Below are positions 6,559-59,886 of a stretch of DNA of 64,000 nt, piece by piece. How positions within the stretch are numbered: position 1 is the first letter of the stretch; each line of letters opens with the position of its first letter. The position numbers and the translations under genes are program-made. Origin of the DNA: a virus; IMG/VR virus record IMGVR_UViG_3300015371_000024, positions 4,614-68,613 of that record; one strand, written 5' to 3'. A model generated the notes under the pieces. That model did not search any database, was not told where the DNA came from, and saw only the letters and a program-made list of their open reading frames with translations.

Positions 6559-6652
6559 CAGAGCGGCTCCAATGCTGGTGACTCGCCAGACACCCCGGTC
6601 CGACGGGCAATCGGAACCTACATCAGCACCAACAATTGAGCCAACGTCGGAT

Positions 6653-8008: not shown

Positions 8009-8019
8009 TAGGATCTCAT

Positions 8020-10697: not shown

Positions 10698-10708
10698 CGT
10701 CGCTTCTC

Positions 10709-34313: not shown

Positions 34314-34906
34314 ATGTCCAAGACGACGTCCAGGGGGAGTGACGGCACCCAACTGCCGCCGGTGTTCAAGTACGGTTTGGCACGCAGGTGGTCGGCCACC
34401 GCGGCTCGGCGGATCTGTTCCTTGTCGCGCCCGAAGAACGCTCGCTTACAGATCCCGCACTCGTTCGGGATGCCGGTGACGTCGAACGCGCCCGCAGCGT
34501 TCCCGGCTCGCCGCTCGGAGACGACCACGTCCACCGGCAGCGAGCACTCGTAGACCGGTTGCACCTTCCGGTCGTGCGCCGCTAGCCCCAGGAGCGCGAG
34601 ATCATACGTCTTCCGGTGCTGCTCTTGGATCGCCTGTGGCGTGAAGTGGTGGACCACGACGCGGTGCGTGGTGACATAGGCGCCCGCTCGCTGCCAGTCC
34701 TGCTCCTCCGGATCCTCCGGCCCGTCCGACATGCCACCATACCCCGCGCTCCAGGATGCCCACAGTCGGTGAATCTCGTCCAGGATCCGGTCCGCTTCCC
34801 CCGGCTTGCCGGTCGGACCCCCCCAGATCCCGCCACCCTGCCAGGTGTCGTCGTCCGGACCCCCGCCGTACCAGATCCCGCCGTCGCCCCGCCAGATATC
34901 GCTCAT
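34310..34906 (-). CDS. First gene of leftward arm; Trp/Gly-rich N-terminus, C-terminal CxxC..H zinc-finger-like motif
   Basis: IWRGDGGIWYGGG..TWQGGGIWGG; CGICKRAF...ADHL. Confidence 0.6.
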   Translation of the reverse strand: MSDIWRGDGGIWYGGGPDDDTWQGGGIWGGPTGKPGEADRILDEIHRLWASWSAGYGGMSDGPEDPEEQDWQRAGAYVTTHRVVVHHFTPQAIQEQHRKTYDLALLGLAAHDRKVQPVYECSLPVDVVVSERRAGNAAGAFDVTGIPNECGICKRAFFGRDKEQIRRAAVADHLRAKPYLNTGGSWVPSLPLDVVLDI

Positions 34907-35564
34907 ACGATGCAGACTACACCGACGTTGCAGCCACGTCAAGCCACGATGCAGACGCCCCGCAACGATCCCGGCTCCAGATGACTTCCACCCCCTTTCC
35001 CACCCTGTCACCCATTACAAACGCCCTTTAGCCGGTTATTCCCCACAATTCCCCCTCTCGAGCCGGGAATATCCGCATCTAACCCCGCCTCAGTAACGGT
35101 TACAGACACCAGTCACCCCCTCCCGAGCCATTCTTGATCCATTTCTTTACAGCACCAGGGTCTTACCATCCCCTCCCCCTGCTGTCGCGCGAGCGCAGCA
35201 CTGTTGCATTCGCGCAACACTCGACTGTGGCGCGAGTTACACAAGCGAGTACTTACATGTCGCGTGAGCTCGACACTTGTGTCGCGAGCTCGCCACAGCT
35301 GTGGGACTCGAGCAACAGGTCATCCGAGTGCACATGGTCTCGCGCTCCCCGCATCCGAGCACAGAGCCGAGTGTAGCATGAGCGCAACAGAGCTGTGTAC
35401 GTTAGGCCACATGGCTAAGGTGTTGGTATTATTGGCGATAGGCGAAAAGTGTCAGGAAAGGCCGGGGAGTATGGTGCGATAAAGTGCGTCTCGCGATACT
35501 TGTCACCCGTGAATGGCGCGCAATGACGCGCGAGTAGTCGGACCTTAGCTAGATAGGTGGGACA
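34907..35564. other. Divergent non-coding control region (candidate genome end/packaging and promoter region)
   Basis: No credible ORF; C-rich tract, long inverted repeat, GTAA..TTAC-type boxes, first early promoter block. Confidence 0.7.
35450..35500 (+). promoter_or_regulatory. Early promoter block copy 1 (divergent copy)
   Basis: TGTCAGGAA-N13-TGGTGCGATAAA-N11-GATACT, same spacing as copies 2-4. Confidence 0.6.
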
Positions 35565-35759
35565 ATGGCTCGTACGGTAACGGTGACGTTGGACCTAGGG
35601 AATGAAGCGATGGCGACGTCTAGTGACGTTGCTCAGATGCTGACCTATGTCGCGGGCATGGTCACGGAAGGAAGGCTGGACGTGACGGCAGATGACTCGC
35701 TGCGGTTACGGGACCGCAACGGGAATGCGGTCGGGTTTGCGCGAGTCGGAGGGCGCTAA
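35565..35759 (+). CDS. Early hypothetical protein
   Basis: 64 aa, AGGTGG RBS. Confidence 0.7.
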   Translation: MARTVTVTLDLGNEAMATSSDVAQMLTYVAGMVTEGRLDVTADDSLRLRDRNGNAVGFARVGGR

Positions 35760-35761
35760 CG

Positions 35762-35989
35762 ATGATCCGCTATCGTGTAGTCGTGACATGGTCCGACGGA
35801 TGTCAGGATGTTGAGGTTGGCACAGCATCGGACCTGCAGGTTGCTAGGCGTGACGTTGCGCTGGCAATGGCGGAAGTGCACGCCATAGCTCGGGTGTCGG
35901 GCGGTACGATCCGGACCGTCAAGACCTTCTACTACGAAAACTTCGTGTCAGGTACGACTTGCCTTGAAACTGCTAACTCGGGGAATTGA
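35762..35989 (+). CDS. Early hypothetical protein
   Basis: 75 aa, GGAGG RBS. Confidence 0.65.
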   Translation: MIRYRVVVTWSDGCQDVEVGTASDLQVARRDVALAMAEVHAIARVSGGTIRTVKTFYYENFVSGTTCLETANSGN

Positions 35990-35992
35990 TCC

Positions 35993-36508
35993 ATGATTAC
36001 GCAAGCAATGCGGGACCAATGGATGGCGACAGTATGTGCACCCGTAGTCGCACCCGTGGCGACGGATCCGAGTCCGGACTCTGCAGAGTGGACGGCTCTA
36101 GAGTCCGAGTGCGAACGTCGGACAAATGGACTCTACTACGCCAAGGGCAATCAAGGTGCGCCATCGTACCGCAAGCGTGCACACCCGCAAAGCTACGGCT
36201 CTGACTTGCCGCTATGGTCCGAGTCCGAGTCCGACGGTTGGACGGTCAAGCTTTCGAAGGCCGAAAAGTCCGAGTTAGCCAAGCGTCAAATCTGTCTCAT
36301 CATGCCGCGCGATGAGTCCGACGCCATCACGCGGTCCGTCAATTCGTGCGGCGAATACGCAATCATCACCGCACATGAAAAGCCTAACCTTTCGGTCACG
36401 AAAGAAACCAAGCGTCGGCTCGCGAGTCTCATCGCCAAAGTCGGCAAGCGTCGGGAATCGGTCCGGACTCGAGCGTCCGAGTTGTCCCTACTGCTGACGG
36501 AAGTCTAA
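35993..36508 (+). CDS. Early hypothetical protein
   Basis: 171 aa ORF in operon. Confidence 0.65.
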   Translation: MITQAMRDQWMATVCAPVVAPVATDPSPDSAEWTALESECERRTNGLYYAKGNQGAPSYRKRAHPQSYGSDLPLWSESESDGWTVKLSKAEKSELAKRQICLIMPRDESDAITRSVNSCGEYAIITAHEKPNLSVTKETKRRLASLIAKVGKRRESVRTRASELSLLLTEV

Positions 36509-36522
36509 GACACTCGCACAAT

Positions 36523-36548
36523 GGCCGGACTCGGATCCGAGTCCGGCC
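36523..36548. repeat. Perfect 26-bp palindrome GGCCGGACTCGGATCCGAGTCCGGCC
   Basis: Read directly; intergenic. Confidence 0.95.
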
Positions 36549-36574
36549 TAACCTACTCGCCAAAGGTGCACGCC

Positions 36575-37048
36575 ATGAAAAAGATTGATGCGAAGGTCCG
36601 ACGGTCACGGTACGGGTATCGGTTGGTCCGGGAATCGGACTCGGGTTGCGTATCGTGGGAATCGAAGCGCCCGACGCGTTGTCCGTCGGATGTCCGTGAC
36701 ATCATGGCGCCGTTAGCGGCAATCGAGCCGACGGAAGTATTCTGGGTACTGTGCCTTGACGCACAGCACAGAGTCGCGAGCGATGGCGTGCAAGTCATCA
36801 CGCGTGGGATACTCAACTCGTCACTAGTGCACCCGCGTGAAGTCTTTCGCGAAGCTATCCTGCGGAATGCCGCCGCGATTGTGCTGTGCCACAATCATCC
36901 GTCAGGGGATCCGACGCCATCAGCCGATGATAGAGTGGTCACGGAACAATTAGCAGCGGCGGGCCGATTGCTGGACATTCCCGTCCATGACCATGTGATC
37001 ATTGCGGGCCATCGCTATACGTCCTTCGCAGAGTCCGGACTACTCTAG
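36575..37048 (+). CDS. RadC-like JAB domain protein
   Basis: E.F.VL.LD, VHPREVF..AI...A..I...HNHPSGDP.PS.DD, DHVII. Confidence 0.95.
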   Translation: MKKIDAKVRRSRYGYRLVRESDSGCVSWESKRPTRCPSDVRDIMAPLAAIEPTEVFWVLCLDAQHRVASDGVQVITRGILNSSLVHPREVFREAILRNAAAIVLCHNHPSGDPTPSADDRVVTEQLAAAGRLLDIPVHDHVIIAGHRYTSFAESGLL

Positions 37049-37088
37049 TCCGGACTACCTAACTAACCTCTCGCCAAAGGTGCACGCC

Positions 37089-37412
37089 ATGTCGCAACTC
37101 ACGCACGCAAGCCTGAATGTCTTTCTCCGCTCGGAAGGTTGGCACGTTGTCGGTACCGGTGGCGGCAATGAAGCCTGGGAAAAGTCCGTCGGATCCGACG
37201 GCCACTATCTATGGCTCACAGATGACGATGGACTCTCGCTTCCCGATACGGTCAATTCTCGCGCATTGCTCGGACTCTATAACCGCGATGGCGAGTGCCT
37301 TGGAGATGTCCGAGACTTCGATACGGTCACGGGTGCGTGCATTGCCGCCGATGAGATTGTCCGGCAATTCGCGCGCATAGGTCCGAGCTCGGATCCTGGC
37401 TCGAGATTCTAA
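37089..37412 (+). CDS. Early hypothetical protein, paralog A
   Basis: GWHVVGTGGGNEAWEKSVGSDG shared with 38434..38727. Confidence 0.85.
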   Translation: MSQLTHASLNVFLRSEGWHVVGTGGGNEAWEKSVGSDGHYLWLTDDDGLSLPDTVNSRALLGLYNRDGECLGDVRDFDTVTGACIAADEIVRQFARIGPSSDPGSRF

Positions 37413-37415
37413 TCT

Positions 37416-37486
37416 TGTCAGGAAGTGTCACTAGCTATTGCGCGATAAAGTCACCGAACGTAAATAGAGTCACGCAACGTAGTTAA
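37416..37486 (+). promoter_or_regulatory. Early promoter block copy 2
   Basis: TGTCAGGAA-N13-TTGCGCGATAAA-N11-TAAATAG-N4-ACGCAACGTAGTTAA. Confidence 0.8.
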
Positions 37487-37508
37487 CCTCTCGCCAAGGT
37501 GTCACGCC

Positions 37509-38357
37509 ATGAAACGCCAGGTTTCCGAGTTAGATACGGCCATTACTCGCACGATAGCCAACGCGATGGGATTGTCCATCGTTGAAGTCCGGGACGATGG
37601 CACTAGCATCGCCGTTCCGTCCACTCGGAAGCGTCGGAAGCGTCACGCACAGCGATTCCCGAAAGTCGCCTGTCGCAAGCGCATTGCGGGCCGCCAGGAT
37701 ATCACGCTAAGCCAACCGGCCAAAATGCCATGCTACGGTTGGTCGCTAACAGCTGGCGCGGCATGTCCGGCAAGCAAGCTGACGGTCAAAATGTACGGTG
37801 ACGCTGCCGTTTGCTCGCACTGCTATGCCGACGGCGTCGGTAACTATGGGTTCCCGAACGTCCGAAAGGCACTCGCAACGCGTATGGCGTTCGTTCGTGA
37901 GTCCCTCACGAAAGACAACGGGGACACGTTCGTGGCGACGATGGTCGATATGATCATTCGCGCCGTCAAGGTCACCGGACCCTATTTCCGGATCCATGAT
38001 AGCGGTGACTTTTTCCACCCGCTCTATGTCGATTGCTGGCGCCGTATCGCACTCGCACTTCCCACCGTCCAATTTTGGGCACCGACGCGCGAGTATCTAC
38101 GGCCCATGATGCTGCCATAGCTCCGAGCACTAGCAGCATTGCCCAACGTCAGCATTCGTCCGAGTGGCGCACAGATCGATGGACTCGCGCCCGTTGTGGA
38201 AGGTCTTGCCGCCGGATCCGCGGTCCAACGCAAAGGCTTGCCAGTCATGACGGACAACGTATGTCCGGCCACGGAAGGGGCGCCATCGTGCGAGTCGCAC
38301 GGGTGCCGCAAATGTTGGGATGCTAAGTCCGAGTCCGTGACCTATCGGTTGCACTAA
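37509..38357 (+). pseudogene. GP88-like (radical-SAM-like) protein interrupted by one in-frame TAG at 38118-38120
   Basis: KMP...WSL.AG..CP, C..CYA..G.Y, FRIHDSGDF, W.PTRE, then same-frame continuation PNV.IR.S and CPA....C..C..CW. Confidence 0.8.
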
Positions 38358-38365
38358 CTCTCTCG

Positions 38366-38393
38366 GGTCCGGACTCGGATCCGAGTCCGGACC
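38366..38393. repeat. Perfect 28-bp palindrome GGTCCGGACTCGGATCCGAGTCCGGACC
   Basis: Read directly; intergenic. Confidence 0.95.
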
Positions 38394-38433
38394 ACCTATC
38401 ACAGTTTCCTAACCTCTAGCCAAGGTGATGACC

Positions 38434-38727
38434 ATGCCACGGCACATTGACGCAACGCTGAATGATTTTCTCCGGACCGACGGATGGCACGTTGTCGGGA
38501 CTGGCGGAGGTAATGAAGCGTGGGAAAAGTCCGTCGGGTCCGACGGTTGGTATGCTTGGATAACGGATGACGATGGCCTATCGCTTCCCGACGCGATGGA
38601 TGCCCGTGTCTTGCTCGGACTCTATAACCGTGATGGCGAGTCCGTCCGAGACGTCGATTCGTTCGCCAGTGTCACGGACGCGTGCATCGCCATTCGTGAG
38701 GTATGGCCGGACTCGGATCCGGCCTAA
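38434..38727 (+). CDS. Early hypothetical protein, paralog B
   Basis: Close paralog of 37089..37412 (TDDDGLSLPD, LLGLYNRDGE). Confidence 0.85.
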   Translation: MPRHIDATLNDFLRTDGWHVVGTGGGNEAWEKSVGSDGWYAWITDDDGLSLPDAMDARVLLGLYNRDGESVRDVDSFASVTDACIAIREVWPDSDPA

Positions 38728-38790
38728 CTCGGATCCGCTCGCACTCGCACCCGTTCGCACTTCCTAACCTACTCGCCAAAGGTGATGACC

Positions 38791-39270
38791 ATGACACGCT
38801 TTATCGCTAACGCACAACGGGACATTTACACCTGGCACAATGATGTCCGAACGTTCGCGCCGTTCTCAGGTCTCGGAGATGCCACCTTCGACGCGGTCGT
38901 ATCGCGCGCACTTTCGGCGGAAATTGTCCGGTCCGAGCTCGCGTCCGAGACAGACTTTCCGATCCCGCCAGCGCCAGGCGCACGCGTGCGGTTGCGCTCG
39001 GACGTCGAACGTGGCAACGGTTGGATCATTCCGAAAGGATCCGCCGGGACGGTGGTCATCTCGGAAGCGGATGAGACGTCGCAATTGATCAGTGTCAGGA
39101 TGGACGAACACTTCCCCGCACTCGATTCGTGGGATAACGAATTGTACTGGATTGGAGAGGATCATTTCGAAGGTGGCGAGAACGTCGGACTGTATGCTGC
39201 CGTGCCTTTTTGGAACGACTGTGCGCTCATGGTCTCGGACGTCAACGCATTCGAACATCGGAGCGCCTAA
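38791..39270 (+). CDS. Early hypothetical protein (SH3-like middle region)
   Basis: Preceded by start-associated repeat; PGARVRL...IPKG..GTVV...VRMD. Confidence 0.75.
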   Translation: MTRFIANAQRDIYTWHNDVRTFAPFSGLGDATFDAVVSRALSAEIVRSELASETDFPIPPAPGARVRLRSDVERGNGWIIPKGSAGTVVISEADETSQLISVRMDEHFPALDSWDNELYWIGEDHFEGGENVGLYAAVPFWNDCALMVSDVNAFEHRSA

Positions 39271-39271
39271 C

Positions 39272-39512
39272 ATGGCACGTCCAACCGCAACCGGTCAGCG
39301 CGTCCGCCTGACCGGCCAGCATCTCCGGAATACCGGCCAGCTGACCGGCCACGATTCGCGCGCAACGTGGCGCGTAGTCGCGCTCGAGAATTGGACGGGC
39401 GCCGTGATGGGTCGTAGTGGACGAACCATCGCCAACGGATCCGACACGCAATCGGCGCATCAATGCGGCGAACCTGTACGTTGTCGGGACTCTTGACCAT
39501 AGGAACGCCTAA
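39272..39512 (+). pseudogene. Small early gene, probably frameshifted near 39400
   Basis: GQRVRLTG..LRNTGQ N-terminus; alternative frame WVVVDEP...RRINAANLYVVG ends at TAA just before next ATG. Confidence 0.45.
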
Positions 39513-39514
39513 CC

Positions 39515-39754
39515 ATGCCCGCGAACATGCCGAAAGCCACAGAGTCACGCCGTCGCTTCGAAATGTGGGCGCTCGGCCTCGTCCGATCGATGGGCGCAAC
39601 GGGTGCGGTCGCATACGCTCGCACGATGGCGGAGTTGGATCCTGAGCCGCAATTGTGGAATCGCGCCGCCACCTACATCGCCTGTCTGTACCTCGGAAAA
39701 GTGTCGAGCTCACGCAACAGATGTCAGGAAACATCGCGCGCACTTGCGCGATAA
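39515..39754 (+). CDS. Early hypothetical protein
   Basis: 79 aa, AGGA RBS. Confidence 0.6.
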   Translation: MPANMPKATESRRRFEMWALGLVRSMGATGAVAYARTMAELDPEPQLWNRAATYIACLYLGKVSSSRNRCQETSRALAR

Positions 39755-39791
39755 ATCACCGGTCGATAAATAGCAGTACGCAACGCAGTTA
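39722..39791 (+). promoter_or_regulatory. Early promoter block copy 3
   Basis: TGTCAGGAA-N13-TTGCGCGATAAA-N11-TAAATAG-N4-ACGCAACGCAGTTA. Confidence 0.8.
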
Positions 39792-39825
39792 GCAGTTAAC
39801 AAACCTCTCGCCAAGGTTACCAGCC

Positions 39826-40131
39826 ATGACTAGCCAGACCCGCCTAATAGCCGCTCGCATCGCCGTTCGCGCCGCCGCGCGTGGGTTTGTTGCCGGCAAC
39901 GTCAACGCGTCCGAGCTCCGGACCGCGACCGCTCGCGCACTGCGCGCTGCCGAGACGATCGTACTGGATCGTCAGGCGCTCCGGGACGCGCGGCGCATGG
40001 TCGATAAGTCTCGCATTGATCGGATCCTGAACGGGCGCGGCGACCTGTGGAACGGATCGGACCGCGCGTTCCAATTCGACATGTTGAACATGGCCGCGCG
40101 CCTCCGCCGTGCCGTCACTTTCTGCGGGTAA
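39826..40131 (+). CDS. Early hypothetical Arg/Ala-rich protein
   Basis: Preceded by start-associated repeat. Confidence 0.75.
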   Translation: MTSQTRLIAARIAVRAAARGFVAGNVNASELRTATARALRAAETIVLDRQALRDARRMVDKSRIDRILNGRGDLWNGSDRAFQFDMLNMAARLRRAVTFCG

Positions 40132-40137
40132 GCCGCC

Positions 40138-40233
40138 ATGTCTCGCGAGCGTCTCATTCTGTGGATGCTGCGGGTGCTGACACTCGCGATCTCGCTTCCG
40201 CTGATTTACCTGAACGAATTGCACCGTCACTAA
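40138..40233 (+). CDS. 31-aa single-TM peptide MSRERLILWMLRVLTLAISLPLIYLNELHRH
   Basis: Fills the gap between genes; hydrophobic core. Confidence 0.5.
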   Translation: MSRERLILWMLRVLTLAISLPLIYLNELHRH

Positions 40234-40246
40234 GAGGATCCAAGCC

Positions 40247-40441
40247 ATGACACACGCATTGCTCGCGGGCGCCACTCGCCAGACCATCGGTTCCCTGCTC
40301 GTCATCACCGCACCGTCCGGCCTTGTCGCAATGGACACGAAAGGCCGCGAGCCCGAGCTCACAACGCCCTCGGGGAAGGCGCTCGAGGCAATGGATCTGT
40401 ACCCGTCGCGGTCTCGAATCGATGGGGCGGATATGTCCTGA
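40247..40441 (+). CDS. Early hypothetical protein (possibly frameshifted, continuing to 40628)
   Basis: GAGGA RBS; startless protein-like frame continues downstream. Confidence 0.5.
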   Translation: MTHALLAGATRQTIGSLLVITAPSGLVAMDTKGREPELTTPSGKALEAMDLYPSRSRIDGADMS

Positions 40442-40596
40442 CGCCGGAAGGGATCGCGAACAAGACCGCGCGACCTGACACCAGCTGGAGCTATCACTGG
40501 TGTTGGGACGCGATGGTCGTTCGCTGCGCCGAGAATCCGAGCGAGTTTACGCGCGAAGATGAGACACTCGAGACCTGTGGCGCCGAGGCCACAACT

Positions 40597-40667
40597 TGTC
40601 AGGAAACGCCCCTGACGCTTGTGCGGTAAAGTCCTGAGTGTTAAGTAGTATCACGCAACGCAGTTAA
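40597..40667 (+). promoter_or_regulatory. Early promoter block copy 4
   Basis: TGTCAGGAA-N13-TTGTGCGGTAAA-N11-TAAGTAG-N4-ACGCAACGCAGTTAA. Confidence 0.8.
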
Positions 40668-40693
40668 GTAAACCTCTCGCCAAGGTGCCAGCC

Positions 40694-41032
40694 ATGAAAC
40701 GCCCTCGTCTCGCAATCGACCAACCGGTGATCGTCCGCCCGTTCGGGAATCTCTCGGACCGCCGCGGCGTGGTCGTGGGATACAAGCCTGGTCGTCGCGC
40801 GGCGGCGAGTGGCCGGATGATTCTCCTGTATGTCGTGAAGCTGGAGAATGGCACCGTCGGCCAGTACCGCCGTCCCGAGCTCAAGGCCGTGACACCCGAG
40901 ACGCCCGAGCCGACGCCGTCGCACTACTGCGCGAACCCGTTCTGCACGTACAAGCGTCCCGTGCACCGTGCCGGCGAATTCTGCACGCCCGCGTGCGCTC
41001 GCGAGCGCTACGGCGAAGACTTCCGCGACTGA
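40694..41032 (+). CDS. SH3/KOW-like plus Cys-rich zinc-binding protein
   Basis: V.V.......RGVVVG...YVVKL; CANPFC...FCTPAC. Confidence 0.7.
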   Translation: MKRPRLAIDQPVIVRPFGNLSDRRGVVVGYKPGRRAAASGRMILLYVVKLENGTVGQYRRPELKAVTPETPEPTPSHYCANPFCTYKRPVHRAGEFCTPACARERYGEDFRD

Positions 41033-41044
41033 GGATCCCGAATC

Positions 41045-41296
41045 ATGGCAACTTTCCCCGTGTTCGCGTCTCACGCCGAGGCTCGGTGCTGCGTGTGTGA
41101 CGGACCGCTCACGCAGCACCATGACGCAGGGTATGCCCCGGGCCGCGGGCAATTCCGCGGACTCTGCGACCGTGGAGCAATGGAGCATCACTCCTGGACG
41201 TATTACGACCTTGACAGGGGCTACGCGAGCAATCGCGCGCGGACCGATTCGGAAGGCGCCTATCGCGCGTGCCGATACTTCTCGGAGAGAGACTAA
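41045..41296 (+). CDS. Small Cys-rich protein
   Basis: CCVC...LC; GAGGA RBS. Confidence 0.65.
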   Translation: MATFPVFASHAEARCCVCDGPLTQHHDAGYAPGRGQFRGLCDRGAMEHHSWTYYDLDRGYASNRARTDSEGAYRACRYFSERD

Positions 41297-41299
41297 CCG

Positions 41300-41524
41300 A
41301 TGCCGTTCACGCCAATCGTTCACAAGGCCGAAGGGCTCGCCCGCAACTGCACGGCGTGGGATCTGTTCACCGTCACCGGTGGACTGCAGTGCGGTAACTG
41401 TCTCGCGCACAACGTCCCGACGATTACGACGTGCCGCGAGCGGGCGAGCGATGGACCGTGTCCGCTGCCGCCCGATGGCGACGATGGTCTGTGCTGGATC
41501 CATCGTCTGCAAGCCAACCGCTAA
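41300..41524 (+). CDS. Small Cys-rich protein
   Basis: CGNC, C..GPC...LCWIH. Confidence 0.6.
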   Translation: MPFTPIVHKAEGLARNCTAWDLFTVTGGLQCGNCLAHNVPTITTCRERASDGPCPLPPDGDDGLCWIHRLQANR

Positions 41525-41540
41525 CCGGAGTTACACAGCC

Positions 41541-41897
41541 ATGCCACGCATTGAGACCGAAGACGGGCGCACCGTCGAGGCGCCTGTCATTCACCTGAAC
41601 GGATCGCATCCGGACAGGCTCGAGGAAGACTTCACCGAGATCCGCCACGCGCTGATCGCAGCATTCGACAAGCTCGCAACCTCCGGCCCGAATCAACGCG
41701 ACTACTACGTGCTGGCACCGGAGGCCGAGGCGCGGCGGGCGTGGGAGGCCGCGGTCGCCGAGCACCGCGCGCGGCTGGACACGCTCAACAAGCTGATCGC
41801 GGACTTTGAAGCGCTGCAGCGTCACGCCTCGGACGCAGCCGAGCGCCGCCGCCAGTCCATCATACCGTCACGCGCCATGCTGGAGATCGTGAAATGA
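41541..41897 (+). CDS. Hypothetical protein
   Basis: GGAG RBS; P.IHLNG ... PN.RDYY pattern. Confidence 0.75.
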   Translation: MPRIETEDGRTVEAPVIHLNGSHPDRLEEDFTEIRHALIAAFDKLATSGPNQRDYYVLAPEAEARRAWEAAVAEHRARLDTLNKLIADFEALQRHASDAAERRRQSIIPSRAMLEIVK

Positions 41898-42091
41898 GAT
41901 GCCACAGCCATGACCACGCCATCAGCCAGGCGCGAGCGAACGCGAAGACGTTCGGGGAAGCGTACATCGTCTTCACGGACACCAATGGTGTGTGGAATTG
42001 CGAGCGCGATAGGCCGCAGTCACCGACACCGCACGAACGCTATGCACCTGACGGAACGATGACACGCTACTCGCCGAAGGTGACACCGTGA
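41894..42091 (+). CDS. Hypothetical protein
   Basis: 65 aa, overlaps neighbours. Confidence 0.6.
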   Translation: MRCHSHDHAISQARANAKTFGEAYIVFTDTNGVWNCERDRPQSPTPHERYAPDGTMTRYSPKVTP

Positions 42092-42717
42092 CCGCTCCGC
42101 TCAGTAATCTCCCGCCTCGGCGCACGGGGCCGCGCGCACCGTACCGAATGGATCCGCAGCGGCAACGAGTCTACGACGCCGAGCGCGCGGCGTTCCTGCC
42201 AATGCCAGGCGCTCGAGACGGCCACCGATTCGTGGTCGAGCTCCCCGAGCTCGCGGATCTACAGCGGTTCTTGGACTTCGTCCGGACGTCTCGCTGGTTC
42301 CGTCGCACGTTCGGGAATCAGTATTACGACATGCGGGCGCAGGACGGGCGCGGGCAGATCCATTCCGCAGCCAATGCGGGCCACCGGACGGTCTCGGTGA
42401 AGCGTGCGTACCGGTGTCGGTGGATCGTGTTGCACGAGGTCGCGCATGTGCTGACGCCGGCGGGATGCCAGAAGCACGGACCCGAGTACGTGAAGATCTA
42501 CCTGCAGCTGGTGCGGCACTACTTGGGGCGCGCGGCATGGCGCGCACTCTACGACCAGTGCAAACTGCATCGCGTGAAGATGCAGACGCGGAAACGGGCG
42601 CGGCGACCGCTTACACCCGAGCAGCGCGCGGTATTGATCGATCGGCTACGTGAGGCTCGAGAACGGAAGCAGGAGCGCGACCAACACATCGCCTACTTGG
42701 AGGGACAAGCGCCATGA
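42088..42717 (+). CDS. HEXXH zinc metalloprotease-like protein (SprT/TIGR04338-like)
   Basis: D.QR.RVY.AE; VLHEVAH; HGPEY. Confidence 0.85.
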   Translation: MTAPLSNLPPRRTGPRAPYRMDPQRQRVYDAERAAFLPMPGARDGHRFVVELPELADLQRFLDFVRTSRWFRRTFGNQYYDMRAQDGRGQIHSAANAGHRTVSVKRAYRCRWIVLHEVAHVLTPAGCQKHGPEYVKIYLQLVRHYLGRAAWRALYDQCKLHRVKMQTRKRARRPLTPEQRAVLIDRLREARERKQERDQHIAYLEGQAP

Positions 42718-43262
42718 CGGACGAGAAGGATCCAGAGACGACGGTCACGATTCCGACGAAGAGCGAGAGCGTGACGAAGAGCACGATTCGCATTGACGGG
42801 AAAGAGTACGTGCTCCCGCCGCATGTGCTCCGCCTCGACGTGGGCGCCATGATCGATATTCCATCCTGTGGTCTATCGGTCCGCGCGGTCAAGCCGCTCA
42901 CGGTCGAGCAGCGCGCCGGCGAAGCGCTCGCATTCTTGGCTCGGACGCTTCGCATGGAGACCGAGGCCGGGATCGACGCCACGACCGAAGACGAGATCAA
43001 ACGGTTCGGCGGGGGGAAGGCGGGCGCTCGGGAATGTTACGCGAACCTCTTGGCGCTCCGGGACTGGATGACGCTCTTTTACGGTGACGTCGCCGAGCAC
43101 TTCCTGTGCGGCAAGCACCAAGATATCGCGCGCGTGCAGTCGGAGCTCGGCTACCAGTACATGGTCGATAACAACGCCGACGAGCGCGAATCGCTGGCTC
43201 AGGCGTTCTTGAGCGTGTTCGGCCAGTCGGGCTCACCCGCGACCGCGAACCTTGAGTCCTAG
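42714..43262 (+). CDS. Hypothetical protein
   Basis: 182 aa, ATGA overlap, GGAGG RBS. Confidence 0.75.
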   Translation: MTDEKDPETTVTIPTKSESVTKSTIRIDGKEYVLPPHVLRLDVGAMIDIPSCGLSVRAVKPLTVEQRAGEALAFLARTLRMETEAGIDATTEDEIKRFGGGKAGARECYANLLALRDWMTLFYGDVAEHFLCGKHQDIARVQSELGYQYMVDNNADERESLAQAFLSVFGQSGSPATANLES

Positions 43263-43265
43263 AGA

Positions 43266-43307
43266 TGCAGCAACCCCGTAGGGGTGTCGGTCCCTACGGG
43301 GTCTGCA
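43266..43307. terminator. Strong hairpin, possibly bidirectional terminator
   Basis: TGCAG..ACCCCGTAGGG/CCCTACGGGGT.CTGCA; no clear U-tract on either side. Confidence 0.6.
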
Positions 43308-43516
43308 GTCTGGTGCTTTGGCGTCTTACGTCACTGCTGCAGCAGCAACTGCGCGTTCGGATGAGTGGTAGAAGCCTGGTCAGGATATCCTGACCGCCTC
43401 CGGCGACCTTGATTGTCGAGAGCCGAGCCTATGCTCGGGATCGACCGATGACGGAGTAGGCCGCATCTCCGCCGACTTGCGCGATGGAAAAAGTCTCGGA
43501 ATTGAATGTACCAGGC
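43266..43516 (-). ncRNA. Candidate structured ncRNA on the strand opposite the early genes
   Basis: Leftward TTGACA-N18-CATACT promoter, five to six consecutive hairpins, terminal strong hairpin, no credible ORF. Confidence 0.45.
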
Positions 43517-43522
43517 GGGCGC

Positions 43523-43552
43523 AGTATGGTCTGAGCACTTTGGTCTTGTCAA
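43523..43552 (-). promoter_or_regulatory. Sigma70-type promoter TTGACA-N18-CATACT facing left
   Basis: Perfect -35 at 43547-43552, -10 at 43523-43528. Confidence 0.65.
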
Positions 43553-43576
43553 CACGCACCATTACAGGGAGCCACC

Positions 43577-43885
43577 GTGAAAAAGACGAAGACGACAGTA
43601 CGCGAAGACGAGTGGACACGGCGCATCCGCGAATGCAGCGAAGCGCAGCCGCCTCTCATGGAGCCAAACATGAAAGCACCAGTGTACCGCGAGTATGTGC
43701 ACCACGTCCGGACCGAGCGCGGCGTGTCCACGTATCAGATCAAGACCGGCGGCAGTAAGCACGCCGAGGTCTTAGCGACGGTCGTGGTCGAGAGCCACCG
43801 TCCCTACTGCGTGACGTGCAGTTCGCGCGACTGCAAGCACGCGAACAAGATCCTGGATCGCATCACCGGAGTGAACCGTGTCTGA
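43577..43885 (+). CDS. SWIM-like zinc finger protein
   Basis: YCVTC....CKH. Confidence 0.65.
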   Translation: MKKTKTTVREDEWTRRIRECSEAQPPLMEPNMKAPVYREYVHHVRTERGVSTYQIKTGGSKHAEVLATVVVESHRPYCVTCSSRDCKHANKILDRITGVNRV

Positions 43886-44306
43886 TAACTCTCCGCGCAT
43901 GGTCACGCGCGACTCCGCCAAGCCAGCATCATTTCCGGAAGGCTCAAGGTTCGCCCCGAGCTATCGCGTCGGATCCAAGACGGGCGCCGATCGCTGCCTC
44001 ATCCACGACAACGACTTCGTCACGGACACGGATCCGGACGATGCCGCCAAGCTGGCATTCGATGAGCTCAAGCGGACCGAGATGTACGGACTCTTTTGGG
44101 ATGGGAAGGTGGTCATCATCCCGAGGACGGGTGTCCGCTGCGTGCACGGCGCCGTCGGCCCGATCGCGGTCCTGTTCATCTCGGGTCCAGGCTTCGACCG
44201 CGTGCAGGAGTCCGAGCGCGAGGTGTACGCCGCGATCGAGTCCGTGATCAATGAGTCGCGAACGCTTCCGCCGCGGCTGACCGAGAACGACGTGGACGAA
44301 GCATAA
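43878..44306 (+). CDS. Hypothetical protein
   Basis: 142 aa, GGAG RBS. Confidence 0.7.
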   Translation: MSDNSPRMVTRDSAKPASFPEGSRFAPSYRVGSKTGADRCLIHDNDFVTDTDPDDAAKLAFDELKRTEMYGLFWDGKVVIIPRTGVRCVHGAVGPIAVLFISGPGFDRVQESEREVYAAIESVINESRTLPPRLTENDVDEA

Positions 44307-44315
44307 AGTCGCTAC

Positions 44316-44344
44316 TTGATCGCGCAACTGTCACGCAGTACATT
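44316..44344 (+). promoter_or_regulatory. Sigma70-type promoter TTGATC-N17-TACATT
   Basis: Intergenic, upstream of HTH regulator. Confidence 0.55.
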
Positions 44345-44374
44345 CTGCATCGTCACCTTTTAGCCACTCAGCCA

Positions 44375-44776
44375 ATGACACGCACGAAGTCGAACATGGG
44401 GAGAAAGAAAGGCACGCGGGCCGCGGCGCCGCGCGCCAAGCGCACGCTGACCGATGTCCAGCGATTGCGCGAGCACATCCTGCTGGAGCTCGGACTCGAG
44501 AAGGGCGAGATCGCCGAGGCGCTCGGGACCACGCGTCAGACCGTGTGCAACATCTTCCTCGATGAGCACCGGTCCGAGTTGGAAGACGCGGTCATTGAGT
44601 ACCTGCGCGACAAGTACGATGCGGCGCCGATCGTCGTCCGTGATCGTATCCTGGTCCTGGTCGAGAGCTACATGCCGCGCGATTGGGACTTGCGACTCAC
44701 AACCACAATCAGCGCCGAGACGCTCGGGTGGTCGAAGCGGTCGAGTCCCGAGCACCAGCCACAGCCACAGATGTGA
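44375..44776 (+). CDS. Cro/C1-type HTH transcriptional regulator
   Basis: LGL...EIAEALGTTRQTVCNI. Confidence 0.8.
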   Translation: MTRTKSNMGRKKGTRAAAPRAKRTLTDVQRLREHILLELGLEKGEIAEALGTTRQTVCNIFLDEHRSELEDAVIEYLRDKYDAAPIVVRDRILVLVESYMPRDWDLRLTTTISAETLGWSKRSSPEHQPQPQM

Positions 44777-44921
44777 GAGCGGCGCGTACAGGGGGAGCCA
44801 CCCGCCTGTCGCGCCGTCTCGGAAAGTCACCGTCTACTGAAGTGTCAGCCATGACACGAAGAATGGGGCGGACGCCTCCGCAGCCATTCCGATAGCCAAA
44901 CCTACTGAGGGAGCCACGCCA

Positions 44922-45245
44922 ATGTCAACACGTATGCCGCAGTTGCCGCCGAACGCCGACATGGGGAAAGCCGTCAAGATCAAGCAGCTGCTGAAAGACC
45001 GCGAGCAGTTGATCGAGGAAGAGAACACGCACACTTGGCTCGACGCACCCAAGGCCATGACGGCACTCCCGGACGGGACCGTGGTCGTGATCATGGAGTC
45101 GGGCCGGTCGTGGCGGTCGAACGGCGATCGCTGGCATCGCCACACCTGGGCGCCGCTCCCGGACTCGCCCGCGGACGAGACGTTCCAGCAGAGACAGGCG
45201 CTCACGCGCGATCTCAAGGCCCTCGGACACCAGGAGGAAGACTAA
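44922..45245 (+). CDS. Hypothetical protein
   Basis: GGGAG RBS, 107 aa. Confidence 0.75.
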   Translation: MSTRMPQLPPNADMGKAVKIKQLLKDREQLIEEENTHTWLDAPKAMTALPDGTVVVIMESGRSWRSNGDRWHRHTWAPLPDSPADETFQQRQALTRDLKALGHQEED

Positions 45246-45289
45246 GGACGGATCCGAACGAGGAAGTCTCCCACAACCAGAGAGGACAG

Positions 45290-46210
45290 ATGCGGTTCAA
45301 GCTACTCGCAGGACTGGCGGCGCTCGCTGTGATGGCGTGCTCGAGTGATCCGGTGGCGCCGACGGTCACGCCGGTCGAACAGCCACAGCCGAGCCAAGGG
45401 ATGGTGGTCGTCGCTTCGCAGAAGATCAATCAGATCCAGCGACCGAACATGGAGATCTACACCGACGTGATGGTCCCGAACACGTCGGTCGTGCCAGACA
45501 ACACGTCGCCGGCGACGGCGTGCGACATCATGCGGAAGTCCGTGCTCGCGAACACGGTCTCGGACCAGAAGCAGAAGATGGTGTACGACGACTACAACGT
45601 GCTGCAGACCAATCCGGTCCGCTATTACAACGGGTTGGTCGTGACCGGTCGCCTCCGGATCGAGTTTCGGGGCTATGTCGGCTACTACAGCGGCCAGCCG
45701 ATCCAATGCGTGCGGGTGGAGAAGGTCTCCTTCGAACGCGCGCGGTACTATCCGATCAAGCCATTCCAGCCAGCGGATCCGCCGACGCGGACGTGGATCG
45801 GGCCACAGGCCAACAATTGGGGATTCTGTCTCGGAGTCGCCTGTAATGGCGCTGGTGCCAACTTGCACGTCCAGGTCGAAGCGCGGTGGAATCGCTACTG
45901 CGAGATGGACATCTCCGTGTCCAACTGCTCGCAGACGATCTACCTCGGGAATCTTGTCTGGGAGCTACCGGCGGGCGGCTACATGGACACCGGCCAGTGG
46001 GACGTGGAGGTGCGCGCGAACGGGTACTGGACGGCGTGGAATTACGGGGGCAATCCGCTCAACGGGATCGGTCCCGACGCACAGATGTTCGGATACTGGC
46101 AATGGGGTCCGAGTCGGTATTACCTCATCGGTGCGTGGGGGATCAGCACGCACGCGGACTTCAAGGCGTATGACGACGGTATCGCGAGTTGGAGATGTTG
46201 CGGTCTCTAG
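45290..46210 (+). CDS. Lipoprotein (possible superinfection exclusion / surface protein)
   Basis: Signal peptide II MRFKLLAGLAALAVMA-C; aromatic beta-rich Cys-containing body. Confidence 0.8.
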   Translation: MRFKLLAGLAALAVMACSSDPVAPTVTPVEQPQPSQGMVVVASQKINQIQRPNMEIYTDVMVPNTSVVPDNTSPATACDIMRKSVLANTVSDQKQKMVYDDYNVLQTNPVRYYNGLVVTGRLRIEFRGYVGYYSGQPIQCVRVEKVSFERARYYPIKPFQPADPPTRTWIGPQANNWGFCLGVACNGAGANLHVQVEARWNRYCEMDISVSNCSQTIYLGNLVWELPAGGYMDTGQWDVEVRANGYWTAWNYGGNPLNGIGPDAQMFGYWQWGPSRYYLIGAWGISTHADFKAYDDGIASWRCCGL

Positions 46211-46222
46211 AGGATCCGATCA

Positions 46223-46579
46223 ATGACGCATCCGCCGATTGATTTCGACCAGCTGGAGATCGATCCCGATCGGCTCACGCGGTCGCTCGTTCTCCAGGTC
46301 ACGCCGATGGAACACGTAGACCTGGAGACGGGCGAGCTCATCGCCATGAAGGGGTGTTACTACGTGACGCCCGTGAGCGACGAGGCACGGAAGCACGGGA
46401 TCGAGAACTACGCGGTCGATCTCTACTCGCCGGACGTGCCGCGATGTACGTGCGGGGATCACACCTTCCGGCAGGTGATTTGTAAGCACATGCTCGCGTG
46501 TCTCCTGTACGAGAGCCAGTCCAAGGTCGTGGCGGCGCTCGCCGCCGAGATCCGGTCGCTTGCTCCCAAGCCCGACTAG
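46223..46579 (+). CDS. SWIM zinc finger protein
   Basis: Y.VDL....CTC.D......CKH. Confidence 0.85.
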   Translation: MTHPPIDFDQLEIDPDRLTRSLVLQVTPMEHVDLETGELIAMKGCYYVTPVSDEARKHGIENYAVDLYSPDVPRCTCGDHTFRQVICKHMLACLLYESQSKVVAALAAEIRSLAPKPD

Positions 46580-46649
46580 CGACTGTCACCATTACACGCT
46601 ATTCTGTCCGTCCCAACCGAACGTACCTTCACTCGCCACGGAGGAAGCC

Positions 46650-47114
46650 ATGACCACAGCAGCACCAGCAGCAGAACCCACCACGACCGGGCCCGTCGCG
46701 CTCGCGACGTTCGTTCCGCCTGAGCGTCCGATACGACGCCCGTTCCTTCTCCCGACGACGGATCTCATCTTCGCGCGTTGCGCGCTCGAGAACACGCAGA
46801 ACGATTACGAGAAGGCCAAGGCCAACGCTACGCTGCTGGAGACGCGGAAGGTTGCGCTGGCCGAGGATCGGGAGGCACTCAAGGCCGAGCTCCTGTGCGA
46901 GATCGCGAAGACGTCCTATGCGTCACAGGCGGCACAGAAGCGCGCCGAGGATTACGCGCTCGCGAACGACACCGCGCTCAAGATCATCGAGCGCCATGAG
47001 GCCGCGATCCGCCTGGTGATGCCCGAGTACAACGAAGACGTCTCGGTCTTCCGGCACCGGATGCTCTCGCTGCGCGCGAACCTCCGGACGTGGGGCGGGG
47101 AGGAAGAAGACTGA
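46650..47114 (+). CDS. Coiled-coil hypothetical protein
   Basis: GGAGG RBS; helical. Confidence 0.7.
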   Translation: MTTAAPAAEPTTTGPVALATFVPPERPIRRPFLLPTTDLIFARCALENTQNDYEKAKANATLLETRKVALAEDREALKAELLCEIAKTSYASQAAQKRAEDYALANDTALKIIERHEAAIRLVMPEYNEDVSVFRHRMLSLRANLRTWGGEEED

Positions 47115-59635: not shown

Positions 59636-59886
59636 TGGACGGTTGGCGACTCTGCAAGAACGCCGTGTGCGCCGAAACGATGGGGGAGCTCCCGCCATCG
59701 GAGTTCTCACTCGCGCCGCACCGCGGTGTCTGCAACGCCTGTATCCGCGAGACCGGCGTCCAGAAGATCCACACCCGCTGCAGCGGCTGCGGGAAGATCA
59801 TCAAGGCCAAGGTCAAGAACGACGGCTACCCGCGGTGTGTCGCGTGCTCCTACAACGGTGCCCGTCGGTCCTACGTGCCAGCATGA
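59635..59886 (+). CDS. Multi-CxxC zinc finger protein
   Basis: Four Cys pairs. Confidence 0.7.
   Translation: MDGWRLCKNAVCAETMGELPPSEFSLAPHRGVCNACIRETGVQKIHTRCSGCGKIIKAKVKNDGYPRCVACSYNGARRSYVPA

Follow-up and report, generated by a model that had tools for sequence, protein, structure and literature searches.

The window, the whole 64,000-nucleotide stretch analysed here, carries the sequence AACCT(A)CT[C/A]GCCAA(A)GGT seven times, and in this phage the ribosome-binding site (RBS) of the genes concerned is part of that sequence of about 18 bases. All copies and the elements around them are read on the + strand. Copy 1 (36550..36568, AACCTACTCGCCAAAGGTG) precedes the ATG at 36575 of a RadC-like JAB gene (36575-37048; RadC Pfam, E 5.6e-42), and copy 2 (37065..37082, AACCTCTCGCCAAAGGTG) precedes the ATG at 37089 of a 107-aa gene, a paralogue of the gene at 38434-38727 (repeat family D1, 74% identity over 270 nt, beginning within the motif). 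Copy 3 (37485..37501, AACCTCTCGCCAAGGTG) stands before a GP88-family gene (ATG 37509; PF17338, E 9.6e-24), copy 4 (38411..38427, AACCTCTAGCCAAGGTG), with the sole change in the central box, before the second paralogue (ATG 38434), and copy 5 (38766..38784, again AACCTACTCGCCAAAGGTG) before a 159-aa gene (ATG 38791). Copies 6 (39802..39818, AACCTCTCGCCAAGGTT) and 7 (40671..40687, again AACCTCTCGCCAAGGTG) lead into a 101-aa gene (ATG 39826) and a 112-aa gene (ATG 40694), respectively. An eighth, degenerate copy (42064..42082, ACGCTACTCGCCGAAGGTG; repeat family D9) sits within the 3' end of the gene 41894-42091 and is followed by the GTG at 42088, which overlaps the stop of that gene (GTGA). Except for the one paralogue pair, the genes behind the copies are mutually unrelated.

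Start register, distribution and Shine-Dalgarno class

Measured from the GGTG that ends the motif (GGTT in copy 6), the start codon follows after 6, 6, 7, 6, 6, 7, 6 and 5 nt in copies 1-8. The eight sites that the first-pass annotation had placed 5-7 nt upstream of start codons are thus all present at those positions, including the partial copy before 42088, in which the CTACTCGCCNAAGGTG part is kept and ACCT is missing. Seven of the eight genes start with ATG and one with GTG; the use of ATG by all seven genes with a full copy does not differ clearly from its use in other genes (73 of 98).

The search pattern AACCTN{0,1}CTNGCCN{1,3}AGGT matched at 36550, 37065, 37485, 38411, 38766, 39802 and 40671, exclusively on the + strand, while 100 dinucleotide-preserving shuffles yielded a mean of 0.00 matches and a maximum of 0. 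A fuzzy scan of both strands of the whole 68,613-bp genome, allowing up to four edits, returned 18 matches, namely the eight copies and ten others; since each of these ten needs four edits, we conclude that the motif is missing from the leftward (structural) arm and from the 4.6 kb beyond the window, in keeping with the first-pass annotation, which had not noticed it in the late arm. All eight copies fall between 36.5 and 42.1 kb, that is, within 5.5 kb of the non-structural arm. Association with starts, strand specificity, confinement to this arm and the presence of a Shine-Dalgarno (SD)-like element inside the motif are therefore all supported. The description of the segment CTCGCCA as almost invariant stands for the motif itself, six of the seven full copies being unchanged and copy 4 having CTAGCCA, but not for the 7-mer taken alone, which is unremarkable (26 matches versus 15.7 expected, 26 being reached in one of 100 shuffles).

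Two hybrid copies were found to the right of the main array. One (44899..44917, AACCTACTGAGGGAGCCAC) is composed of AACCTACT plus GAGGGAGCCAC and lies 4 nt before the ATG at 44922; the other (46625..46644, ACCTTCACTCGCCACGGAGG) has a canonical GGAGG SD and lies 5 nt before the ATG at 46650. Within the array, copies 1 and 5 have 22 nt in common (CCT and the 19-nt motif) and are followed by different spacers.

The motif genes form a separate SD class of AAGGTG type: between -20 and -4, AGGTG or AAGGT occurs in eight of eight and GGAG, GAGG or AGGA in none, whereas among 98 other genes, roughly called (outside 35.4-43.3 kb, by an in-house caller), 48 have one of these canonical cores and three have the AGGTG type. 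AAGGTG would be the working SD if, as we assume, it pairs with host 16S rRNA. The motif leaders are also poor in G, with 10% at -30 to -13 versus 25% in 38 other genes preceded by a gap. Several late leaders resemble this G-poor box, for example that of the major-head gene (start 24494).

Elements upstream of the motif

From 36509 to 40693, each of the seven + strand gaps of at least 40 nt contains the motif, which precedes the first cistron after the gap. It is absent from genes that follow short gaps or overlaps, with degenerate copy 8 as the sole exception; unit-internal genes, which lack it, start no more than 18 nt from the upstream stop or overlap it. The full copies are flanked by a stable palindromic hairpin in four cases and by a promoter-like repeat of about 70 nt in three.

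Hairpin H1 (36523..36548; 11 bp, -24.3 kcal/mol), which is not followed by a T-run, ends 1 nt before copy 1; its stability was equalled in none of 200 shuffles, and it also occurs in repeat families I5, D7 and D10. H2 (37032..37056; 11 bp, -18.4 kcal/mol; 0 of 200 shuffles as stable) straddles the stop of the RadC gene, with 8 nt between its end and copy 2, and H3 (38366..38393; 12 bp, -25.7 kcal/mol; 0 of 200 shuffles) lies 17 nt before copy 4. H4 (38705..38724; 7 bp in a fold of -17.9 kcal/mol), 41 nt before copy 5, is less well supported, 17 of 200 shuffles being equally stable.

The first promoter-like repeat (35450..35519, family D5; TGTCAGGAA ... TGGTGC-17 nt-GATACT) forms the head of the rightward arm, and the first gene behind it (ATG 35565) has AGGTGGG without the motif. 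The three others belong to family D2: one (37416..37485; TTGCGC-17 nt-TAAATA, then CACGCAACGTAGTTA) abuts copy 3, and those at 39722..39791 and 40597..40666 lie immediately upstream of copies 6 and 7. These repeats, which a consensus promoter scan did not list, are probably sigma-70-like promoters. Because the flanks fall into unrelated classes and the genes downstream are unrelated as well, the conserved island is the leader itself.

A probable translation-initiation leader and its alternatives

In our view, the motif is a translation-initiation cassette akin to the start-associated sequences of other phages, a standardised leader that acts on the mRNA, and we assign this reading a probability of roughly 0.6. 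The leader would comprise, in order, (Y)TAA, the G-poor box CCT(A)CTCGCCA, an AAGGTG-type SD and a 5-7-nt spacer ending in RCC before the ATG, and would serve the first cistron of each expression unit in a region that is presumably early. The array resembles a set of cassettes of small genes, most of them orphans, and the first gene of each unit would come after a stable palindromic hairpin or a sigma-70-like promoter repeat. The upstream box may bind a factor, or may be a tract with little structure that acts as a standby site or enhancer. Selection, together with recombination or gene conversion among copies, may maintain their near-identity; the 22 nt shared by copies 1 and 5 and the hybrids at 44899 and 46625 point to exchange among copies. 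An SD combined with a generic unstructured tract leaves the near-invariance of the 12 nt upstream of the SD unexplained.

The first-pass annotation had instead proposed an ACCT-loop-AGGT hairpin that hides the RBS. As an RNA operator, ACCU:AGGU pairing would present CUCGCCA in a 7-9-nt loop and sequester the SD, and a phage or host RNA-binding protein or endonuclease would switch the early leader cistrons together. The near-invariance of a box outside the SD points to recognition of a specific sequence, class-specific control would be possible with a distinct SD class, and the ACCT/AGGT complementarity is present in seven of seven full copies. However, as a 4-nt SD complement lies 3-12 nt upstream in five of 58 other genes, compared with 5.5 in the control, such complementarity is roughly a 9% event for one motif family. 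The 4-bp stem contributes just -2.0 to -2.9 kcal/mol and is the minimum-energy fold in three of seven copies; z-scores for the motif fold range from -1.47 to +0.65, with 18 to 148 of 200 shuffles folding equally well or better, and in an 80-nt context at 37 C the pair probability is 0.00-0.67, reaching at least 0.5 in one of seven. Moreover, the loop measures 7, 8 or 9 nt, copy 8 retains loop and SD while lacking the 5' arm, and the seven copies, whose stems are identical, offer no covariation to count. Two further leaders are in line with an operator: ACCT-9 nt-AGGTGG, with another loop, stands before the first gene of the rightward arm, a case that is not significant, and in the hybrid at 46625 a different arm, CCUUC, pairs with a different SD, GGAGG (-7.8 kcal/mol, z -1.61). 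No RNA-binding family was found among 56 proteins scanned with Pfam and/or PHROGs. Since the stem is weak and shuffles fold as well, the idea that it hides the RBS is unsupported; by itself, intramolecular pairing would be at most a weak modulator, and we judge the RNA operator as a whole, which a bound factor might stabilise, to be unlikely.

We give little credence to a third possibility, that the motif is mainly a relic of array assembly, a portable junction of hairpin or promoter plus RBS that was copied with each acquired gene, underwent homologous exchange and functions as an ordinary RBS only. The small orphan genes, with a GC content of 0.578 at 36-38 kb versus about 0.63-0.65 elsewhere, the low codon-usage scores of the motif region, the repeated junction modules, the mosaic combination of motif, spacer and flank, and the paralogue pair within the array are all compatible with such a history, and exchange at junctions has been proposed for the PeSL motifs of T4-like phages (PMC4122927). 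Yet between the paralogues nucleotide identity has fallen to 74%, whereas one substitution and one indel in 18 nt are all that separates their motif copies; conservation ends abruptly at the motif edges; and in contigs from four other samples no joint falls at a motif copy, the two that were listed, with sides of 21 and 24 letters, being located elsewhere.

Least probable, and very improbable, is an asymmetric, stoperator-like DNA site at which a phage repressor or activator blocks or allows transcription into the early units: the sites are short, asymmetric, intergenic and of one orientation, copy 6 forms a 5-bp inverted repeat (AACCT-7 nt-AGGTT), the neighbouring perfect palindromes could bind protein too, Pope et al. 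preferred DNA binding for the inverted repeats of the extended sequences discussed below (PMC3203893), and the protein encoded at 44375-44776 has a weak HTH match below the Pfam cut-off, but a fixed start-codon register and an SD-like element are needless for a transcription roadblock, the half-site-like arms are variably spaced (7-9 nt), the sites all lie on the sense strand within a single stretch of 5.5 kb, and neither a repressor nor an integrase was recognised among the subset of gene products scanned.

Start-associated sequences in other phages

The shared RBS leader of this uncultivated soil phage resembles, in position and logic, the start-associated sequences of some mycobacteriophages. 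Those of Cluster K (SAS, consensus as printed GGGATAGGAGCCC) and their extended form (ESAS) were described by Pope et al. 2011 (PMC3203893), in an account that leaves their function unexplained. The positional analogy drawn in the first-pass annotation holds for the features given there: both are short asymmetric repeats in one orientation, limited to the non-structural half of the genome and attached to genes of unrelated families, both occupy the RBS position (3-7 bp from the start codon for SAS, 5-7 nt here), both are preceded by inverted repeats in about half of the copies, and both are conserved further than 16S pairing explains, which Pope et al. took as an argument for a specific factor. 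The phage studied here is, however, unrelated to Cluster K, and so is the sequence of its motif, which has an AAGGTG-type core rather than AGGAG, is longer (17-19 nt, with single-base indels inside it), occurs in 7 + 1 rather than 11-19 copies, and lies within 5.5 kb in front of cistrons that come first behind a hairpin or promoter-like repeat. In addition, the inverted repeats that precede our motif are perfect palindromes and would fold in RNA, whereas the departures within ESAS, as described, lend no support to RNA pairing.

Among Microbacterium phages, Jacobs-Sera et al. 2020 (PMC7302621) describe an SAS-like motif in Cluster EF and intergenic repeats in Clusters EC, EG and EI, likewise leaving function unexplained. 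According to that description, these motifs are specific to their clusters; in the right arm they coincide with the RBS position of a gene or lie shortly before it, and they are tied to inverted repeats 14-22 bp from the start or to upstream sequence that is weakly conserved. Their sequences differ from that of our motif, to which the EF motif is unrelated. Membership in these clusters is not indicated: for a single right-arm protein (55426-56061) the best matches among isolate phages fall there, at 35-39% identity.

Experimentally defined translational operators of phage mRNAs include the coat-protein operators of RNA phages, the sites of T4 RegA, gp43 and gp32, and the early SDs cleaved by RegB. 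Like these, the motif is a cis element over the SD or start of presumably early or regulatory genes, with class-wide control being possible; unlike them, it shows no stable or covarying structure, and no cognate protein was recognised among the 56 proteins scanned.

The stoperators of Cluster A mycobacteriophages, as mentioned in PMC3203893, are similarly short, asymmetric, numerous per genome and oriented with transcription, but they control transcription and keep no fixed distance from start codons, and no repressor was identified here among the proteins scanned. The PeSL (promoter-early stem-loop) cassettes of T4-like phages are described by Comeau, Arbiol and Krisch 2014 (PMC4122927) as repeated composite junctions of promoter and stem-loop that separate small, variable ORFs in a plastic early region, and as candidate points of homologous exchange, as the junctions here may be. 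In our array, by contrast, it is the RBS leader that is conserved, with promoter-like repeats and hairpins as alternative partners, and contigs from four other samples reveal no exchange event.

In the distantly related G001, whose portal is 36% identical, starts are associated with another motif, CTAAYAGRGGG, which has eight copies in 16 kb versus 0.01 expected and a hairpin of variable sequence before each.

Number, position and setting of the motif

Searching for the pattern AACCT(N0-1)CTNGCC(N1-3)AGGT, we found seven matches, beginning at 36550, 37065, 37485, 38411, 38766, 39802 and 40671 and all on the + strand, while none of 100 shuffled sequences contained a match (0 expected vs 7 observed). 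An eighth, partial copy at 42064-42082 retains CTACTCGCCGAAGGTG, with ACGC replacing AACC, and two hybrid copies (44899-44917, before the ATG at 44922, and 46625-46644, before the ATG at 46650) exist in addition to the seven full copies and the degenerate one. When both strands of the entire genome were scanned with a fuzzy pattern, no motif copy beyond the known eight was recovered. The first-pass annotation had listed eight start-linked sites and had seen none in the late arm; both observations hold, the eighth site being a partial copy, and the genome-wide scan it proposed places the copies at starts and none elsewhere.

All eight copies are co-directional with the genes, with none on the - strand, and in each of them GGTG lies 5-7 nt ahead of the start codon (ATG for the seven full copies, GTG for copy 8), that is, at the position of a ribosome binding site. 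They span 36.5-42.1 kb (5.5 kb), with the hybrids extending to 46.6 kb, and occur in the rightward arm only. The motif-associated starts are credible. A RadC domain lies downstream of one and a GP88 domain downstream of another, and from the motif onward the paralogous genes 37089-37412 and 38434-38727 resemble each other (74% nucleotide identity over 270 nt), their protein similarity starting at the motif-associated ATGs. These paralogues gave no Pfam or PHROG match, and both come with a motif copy and a hairpin of their own. This pair apart, the genes preceded by the motif are mutually unrelated within the genome. Rfam returned no match over 34500-47500 at E values up to 1.

The window covers bases 4614-68613 of a single 68,613-bp contig, which we read as the genome of a tailed phage whose two arms diverge. 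The leftward arm, on the - strand below about 35,000, carries the structural genes, including those for the large terminase (TerL; 28039-29586; PF04466, E 3.6e-08), a portal-like protein (26101-28005), the major head protein (phrog_29) and a 2488-aa tape-measure protein identified by tape-measure family matches. The rightward arm begins near 35,450 with small, mostly orphan genes, and farther along encodes a replication-initiation-like protein and a queuine tRNA-ribosyltransferase homologue (59883-60638; phrog_1279, E 3.3e-60). Phage genes of the latter type suggest 7-deazaguanine modification of phage DNA.

Judged from these sequence comparisons, the phage is very divergent. Neither near nor distant nucleotide searches of the phage collection with 36000-43000, nor tblastn of the portal against the isolate-phage collection, gave a match; a TerL search of the phage collection returned 36 records, all below 60% identity and none covering 80%, and portal relatives at 69-73% identity were database proteins only. 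The sequence is present in rhizosphere and soil metagenome runs, no RNA run being listed among them. For one right-arm protein, 81 of 82 isolate-phage matches were to Gordonia, Microbacterium or Mycobacterium phages, and one early gene is a GP88-family member by its Pfam match; together these hint, weakly, at an actinobacterial gene pool. A search for the portal did not find it in five named genomes or in 401 sampled Actinomycetota genomes, a result that says nothing either way on the host. For the protein encoded at 35993-36508, the ESM Atlas entry (model pLDDT 0.41) had no usable match.

The motif genes also form a distinct class by ribosome binding site. Counting Shine-Dalgarno (SD) elements between -20 and -4 in rough gene calls and hand-curated early genes, we found AGGTG or AAGGT at all eight motif genes and GGAG, GAGG or AGGA at none, whereas the canonical core is present at 48 of 98 other genes and the AGGTG type at 3 of 98. 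CC at -2 and -1 is likewise universal among motif genes (8/8 vs 17/98 others), and the G content at -30 to -13 is 10%, as against 25% in 38 other gap-preceded genes. An RCC-ATG context is common among early-region starts (35565-43262) with or without the motif. The AAGGTG element is SD-like and has a further 12 near-invariant nucleotides upstream, the limits of 16S pairing being assumed. Similar leaders precede a few late genes, including the major head gene, and in the leader of the start at 23329 the tract CCTTCACTCACCA almost matches the hybrid copy at 46625.

Promoter-like repeats and palindromes upstream of the motif

To place the motif, all gaps between + strand genes were listed. Between 36509 and 40693 there are seven gaps of at least 40 nt, and the motif occupies the 3' end of every one; genes that overlap the upstream gene or start no more than 18 nt from its stop have no motif, with the exception of copy 8, which sits at a GTGA overlap, inside the coding sequence of the upstream gene. 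Among the seven gaps, some contain a promoter-like repeat (copies 3, 6 and 7) and the others a palindrome (copies 1, 2, 4 and 5). Because the motif is found in all seven gaps, of both kinds, we take it to be the leader that every first cistron has behind a punctuation mark in the early region.

A repeat of roughly 100 nt has copy 3, 6 or 7 at its 3' end, and its upstream 70 nt comprise TGTCAGGAA, TTGCGC or TTGTGC, exactly 17 nt, TAAATA or TAAGTA, and then CACGCAACGYAGTTA, a layout that we infer to be a promoter. A fourth promoter-like repeat, at the head of the rightward arm (35450), reads TGGTGC-17 nt-GATACT. A stricter promoter consensus scan did not list the repeat sites. In the four repeats of about 70 nt (35450-40666), a common upstream TGTCAGGAA box precedes a conserved GCGATAAAGT by about 22 nt; this distance is too great for a -35/-10 pair, so the box may be a regulator site. 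About 150 nt without a called gene (40442-40596) separate the gene at 40247-40441 from the third promoter-like repeat.

The palindromes before copies 1, 2, 4 and 5 are GC-rich, are built on CCGGACTCGGATCCGAGTCCGG and end 1, 8, 17 or 41 nt upstream of these four of the seven motif copies. Three of them fold at -24.3, -18.4 and -25.7 kcal/mol, each with none of 200 shuffles as stable, and the fourth at -17.9 kcal/mol, with 17 of 200 shuffles as stable. A T-run was absent after all four palindromes. Candidate roles for these putative hairpins are those of a terminator, an attenuator, a processing site, an RNA stabiliser or a DNA-binding palindrome. The words GTCCGGAC and TCCGAGTCCG, together with GGATCC-centred palindromes, are concentrated in 36050-38740, with examples in coding sequence at 36056-36090 and 36218-36235, and are possible protein-binding sites or traces of cassette building. 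GC content falls to 0.578 at 36-38 kb.

Readings of the motif

The motif is a start-associated leader, statistically secure and best placed with the start-associated sequences (SAS) described in Cluster K mycobacteriophages. That it serves as the SD element and acts in cis on the mRNA is our main reading, to which we would assign a probability of roughly 0.6.

The copies are, by their sequence, mosaic. Conservation ends at the motif edges, and outside the two junction classes the flanks are unrelated. While the paralogous pair has drifted to 74% identity, a single substitution and a single indel separate its two motif copies. Copies 1 and 5 have 22 nt in common (CCT and the 19-nt motif) and differ in their spacers (CACGCC vs ATGACC); spacer classes do not track upstream classes, and the two hybrids join motif halves to other SDs. 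MAFFT alignment of the copies misplaced one-base indels. The likeness of the copies fits a combination of selection on the leader and exchange between copies; what is selected may be efficiency as such, insulation from the surrounding sequence or recognition by some factor.

It had also been proposed that a hairpin formed by ACCU and AGGU within the motif hides the ribosome binding site, and as an autonomous structure this hairpin is not supported. The stem comprises 4 bp closing a loop of 7-9 nt, at -2.0 to -2.9 kcal/mol. In folds of about 31 nt per copy it was the minimum in only three of seven, with z values of -1.47 to +0.65 and 18-148 of 200 shuffles at least as stable. Within an 80-nt context, its pair probability ranged from 0.00 to 0.67 at 37 C, reaching 0.5 in one of the seven copies, and in two of the seven at 20 C. 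The GGU of the SD is predicted to be mostly paired in every motif copy, the only leaders for which this was computed, with partners that differ. The stem is invariant across the seven copies, so that covariation is not countable, and copy 8 keeps loop and SD without the 5' arm. These results do not amount to a stable, SD-sequestering hairpin backed by covariation.

An RNA operator in which this stem sequesters the SD of the leader cistrons is possible, though rather unlikely and unsupported. Two sites speak for it: the hybrid at 46625 places another arm (CCUUC) opposite another SD (GGAGG), and ahead of the first rightward gene stands ACCT-9 nt-AGGTGG, in which the loop is unrelated. Against it stand the weakness of the stem, its failure to outperform shuffles and its missing arm in copy 8, as well as the occurrence of a perfect 4-nt SD complement 3-12 nt upstream in 5 of 58 other genes, vs 5.5 in a gene-swapped control; such complements are therefore not rare. 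The same comparison eliminates general anti-SD mimicry upstream of SDs.

A factor-stabilised operator at the motif is possible. Tentatively, the box and AAGGTG might be recognised in the RNA by a dedicated trans-acting factor that serves all early leader cistrons and for which the weak ACCU:AGGU stem would be a scaffold that the factor stabilises. This factor could be a phage early protein, for example from one of the three motif-less, first-transcribed genes at 35565-36508 (35565-35759, 35762-35989 and 35993-36508), or a host protein, and would repress, activate or cleave the leader cistrons of all early units together, as a post-transcriptional regulon.

That the motif is a relic of cassette junctions we consider improbable. 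In contigs from four other samples no joint was found at a motif copy; these contigs were identical where covered, and so showed no variation. Similar to the promoter-early stem-loop (PeSL) cassettes of T4-like phages, as set out in the relevant part of PMC4122927, promoter-like repeats and hairpins flank small orphan ORFs here; unlike in PeSL cassettes, no exchange event was observed among the contigs of the four other samples.

Still less probable is a DNA operator. Like stoperators, the sites are asymmetric and co-oriented; unlike stoperators, they keep a fixed register to starts and all lie within 5.5 kb. No repressor was recognised among the proteins scanned. A promoter for a phage-encoded RNA polymerase can be dismissed, as the 2488-aa protein matches tape-measure families and sigma-70-like repeats lie about 30 nt upstream of three copies.

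A side observation concerns the GP88-family gene (37509 onward), which has an in-frame TAG at 38118-38120, the frame remaining open to 38357. Contigs from two other samples (X5 and X6) have C for A at 38119, giving TCG (Ser); the TAG is therefore a strain polymorphism or an assembly error, and recoding is ruled out.

Start-associated motifs in other phages

In the parts of the Cluster K report concerned with SAS (Pope et al. 2011; PMC3203893), these are 13-bp asymmetric sequences present in 11-19 copies in one orientation, 3-7 bp ahead of starts in the right, non-structural half and in the position of the ribosome binding site, with conserved bases that exceed possible 16S rRNA pairing. About half have, directly upstream, an extended element (ESAS) of imperfect inverted repeats of about 17 bp with a variable spacer (PMC3203893). 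For Cluster EF, the corresponding part of PMC7302621 (Jacobs-Sera et al. 2020) describes a comparable motif, and for Clusters EC, EG and EI it describes other repeats close to starts. Compared with SAS as presented there, our motif is also a short asymmetric repeat (seven full copies, fewer than the 11-19 of Cluster K) that is start-proximal, in one orientation and restricted to the non-structural arm; the positional analogy to Cluster K drawn in the first-pass annotation is thus sustained by repetition, start proximity, orientation and arm. However, the motif and the K/EF consensus, as given in those parts, share no more than a G-rich SD core. Since the position agrees and the sequence is unrelated, we consider the motif an analogue rather than a homologue. 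As to ESAS, an upstream palindrome accompanies four of our seven copies, and these palindromes are perfect and RNA-foldable (-18 to -26 kcal/mol), unlike the ESAS of that account.

The function of SAS was left undetermined in the same part of the Cluster K report (PMC3203893), and a solution may exist in other papers. If the trans-acting factor proposed here were real, SAS in general would be operators of such regulons, which would answer a question open since 2011. Earlier descriptions of SAS come from a small number of cultivated actinobacteriophage clusters. That a very divergent, uncultivated rhizosphere siphovirus has an unrelated sequence placed by the same logic suggests that standardised early-gene leaders recur among phages and are not peculiar to one cluster. 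The present example is unusually clean, marking exactly the first cistron after a promoter-like repeat or hairpin and having its own SD class, an arrangement that should allow standard ribosome-binding-site, RNA operator and DNA operator readings to be told apart. Being compact and portable, the leader could also be of use for expressing genes in high-GC hosts.

The motif itself was not found in 107 loci (1.14 Mb) of distant portal relatives, in which 21 fuzzy matches, none convincing, compare with 7 in reversed controls, nor in five whole relative records. Portal alignment scans yielded 34 metagenome loci at no more than 45% identity and 60 IMG/VR loci at no more than 37%, except for 59% over a 27-residue fragment. 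In IMG/VR, TerL and GP88-like proteins had no close relatives, the 22-nt palindrome had no match, and an exact 17-mer had one chance match, inside a gene of an unrelated contig. A species-genome collection gave at least 120 single matches scattered over many phyla; among the matches listed, 3 of 120 had an ATG 4-7 nt downstream, and these look coding.

One relative has a start motif of its own. The complete genome G001 (63,447 bp with direct terminal repeats; the L209/L222 contig of IMG/VR), whose portal is 36% identical, carries CTAAYAGRGGG in eight exact copies in 16 kb vs 0.01 expected, and in ten copies when up to one substitution is allowed. These lie at G001 coordinates 5901-15779 and 47727, on both strands, each 4-12 nt ahead of an ATG (once TTG). 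By eye, most have a short hairpin upstream, its sequence varying from copy to copy, and a promoter-like sequence farther upstream. That this motif differs from ours agrees with start-associated leaders being a recurrent solution. Crude scans of partial sequences of three other relatives showed no comparable start motif.

Our phage also contains another small motif family, RGGGAGCCAC, of which three copies are exactly GGGAGCCAC, at 43565-43575, 44791-44801 and 44907-44917, two of them just ahead of starts (GTG 43577 and ATG 44922); it resembles the G001 motif and the SD-plus-CC shape of published SAS.
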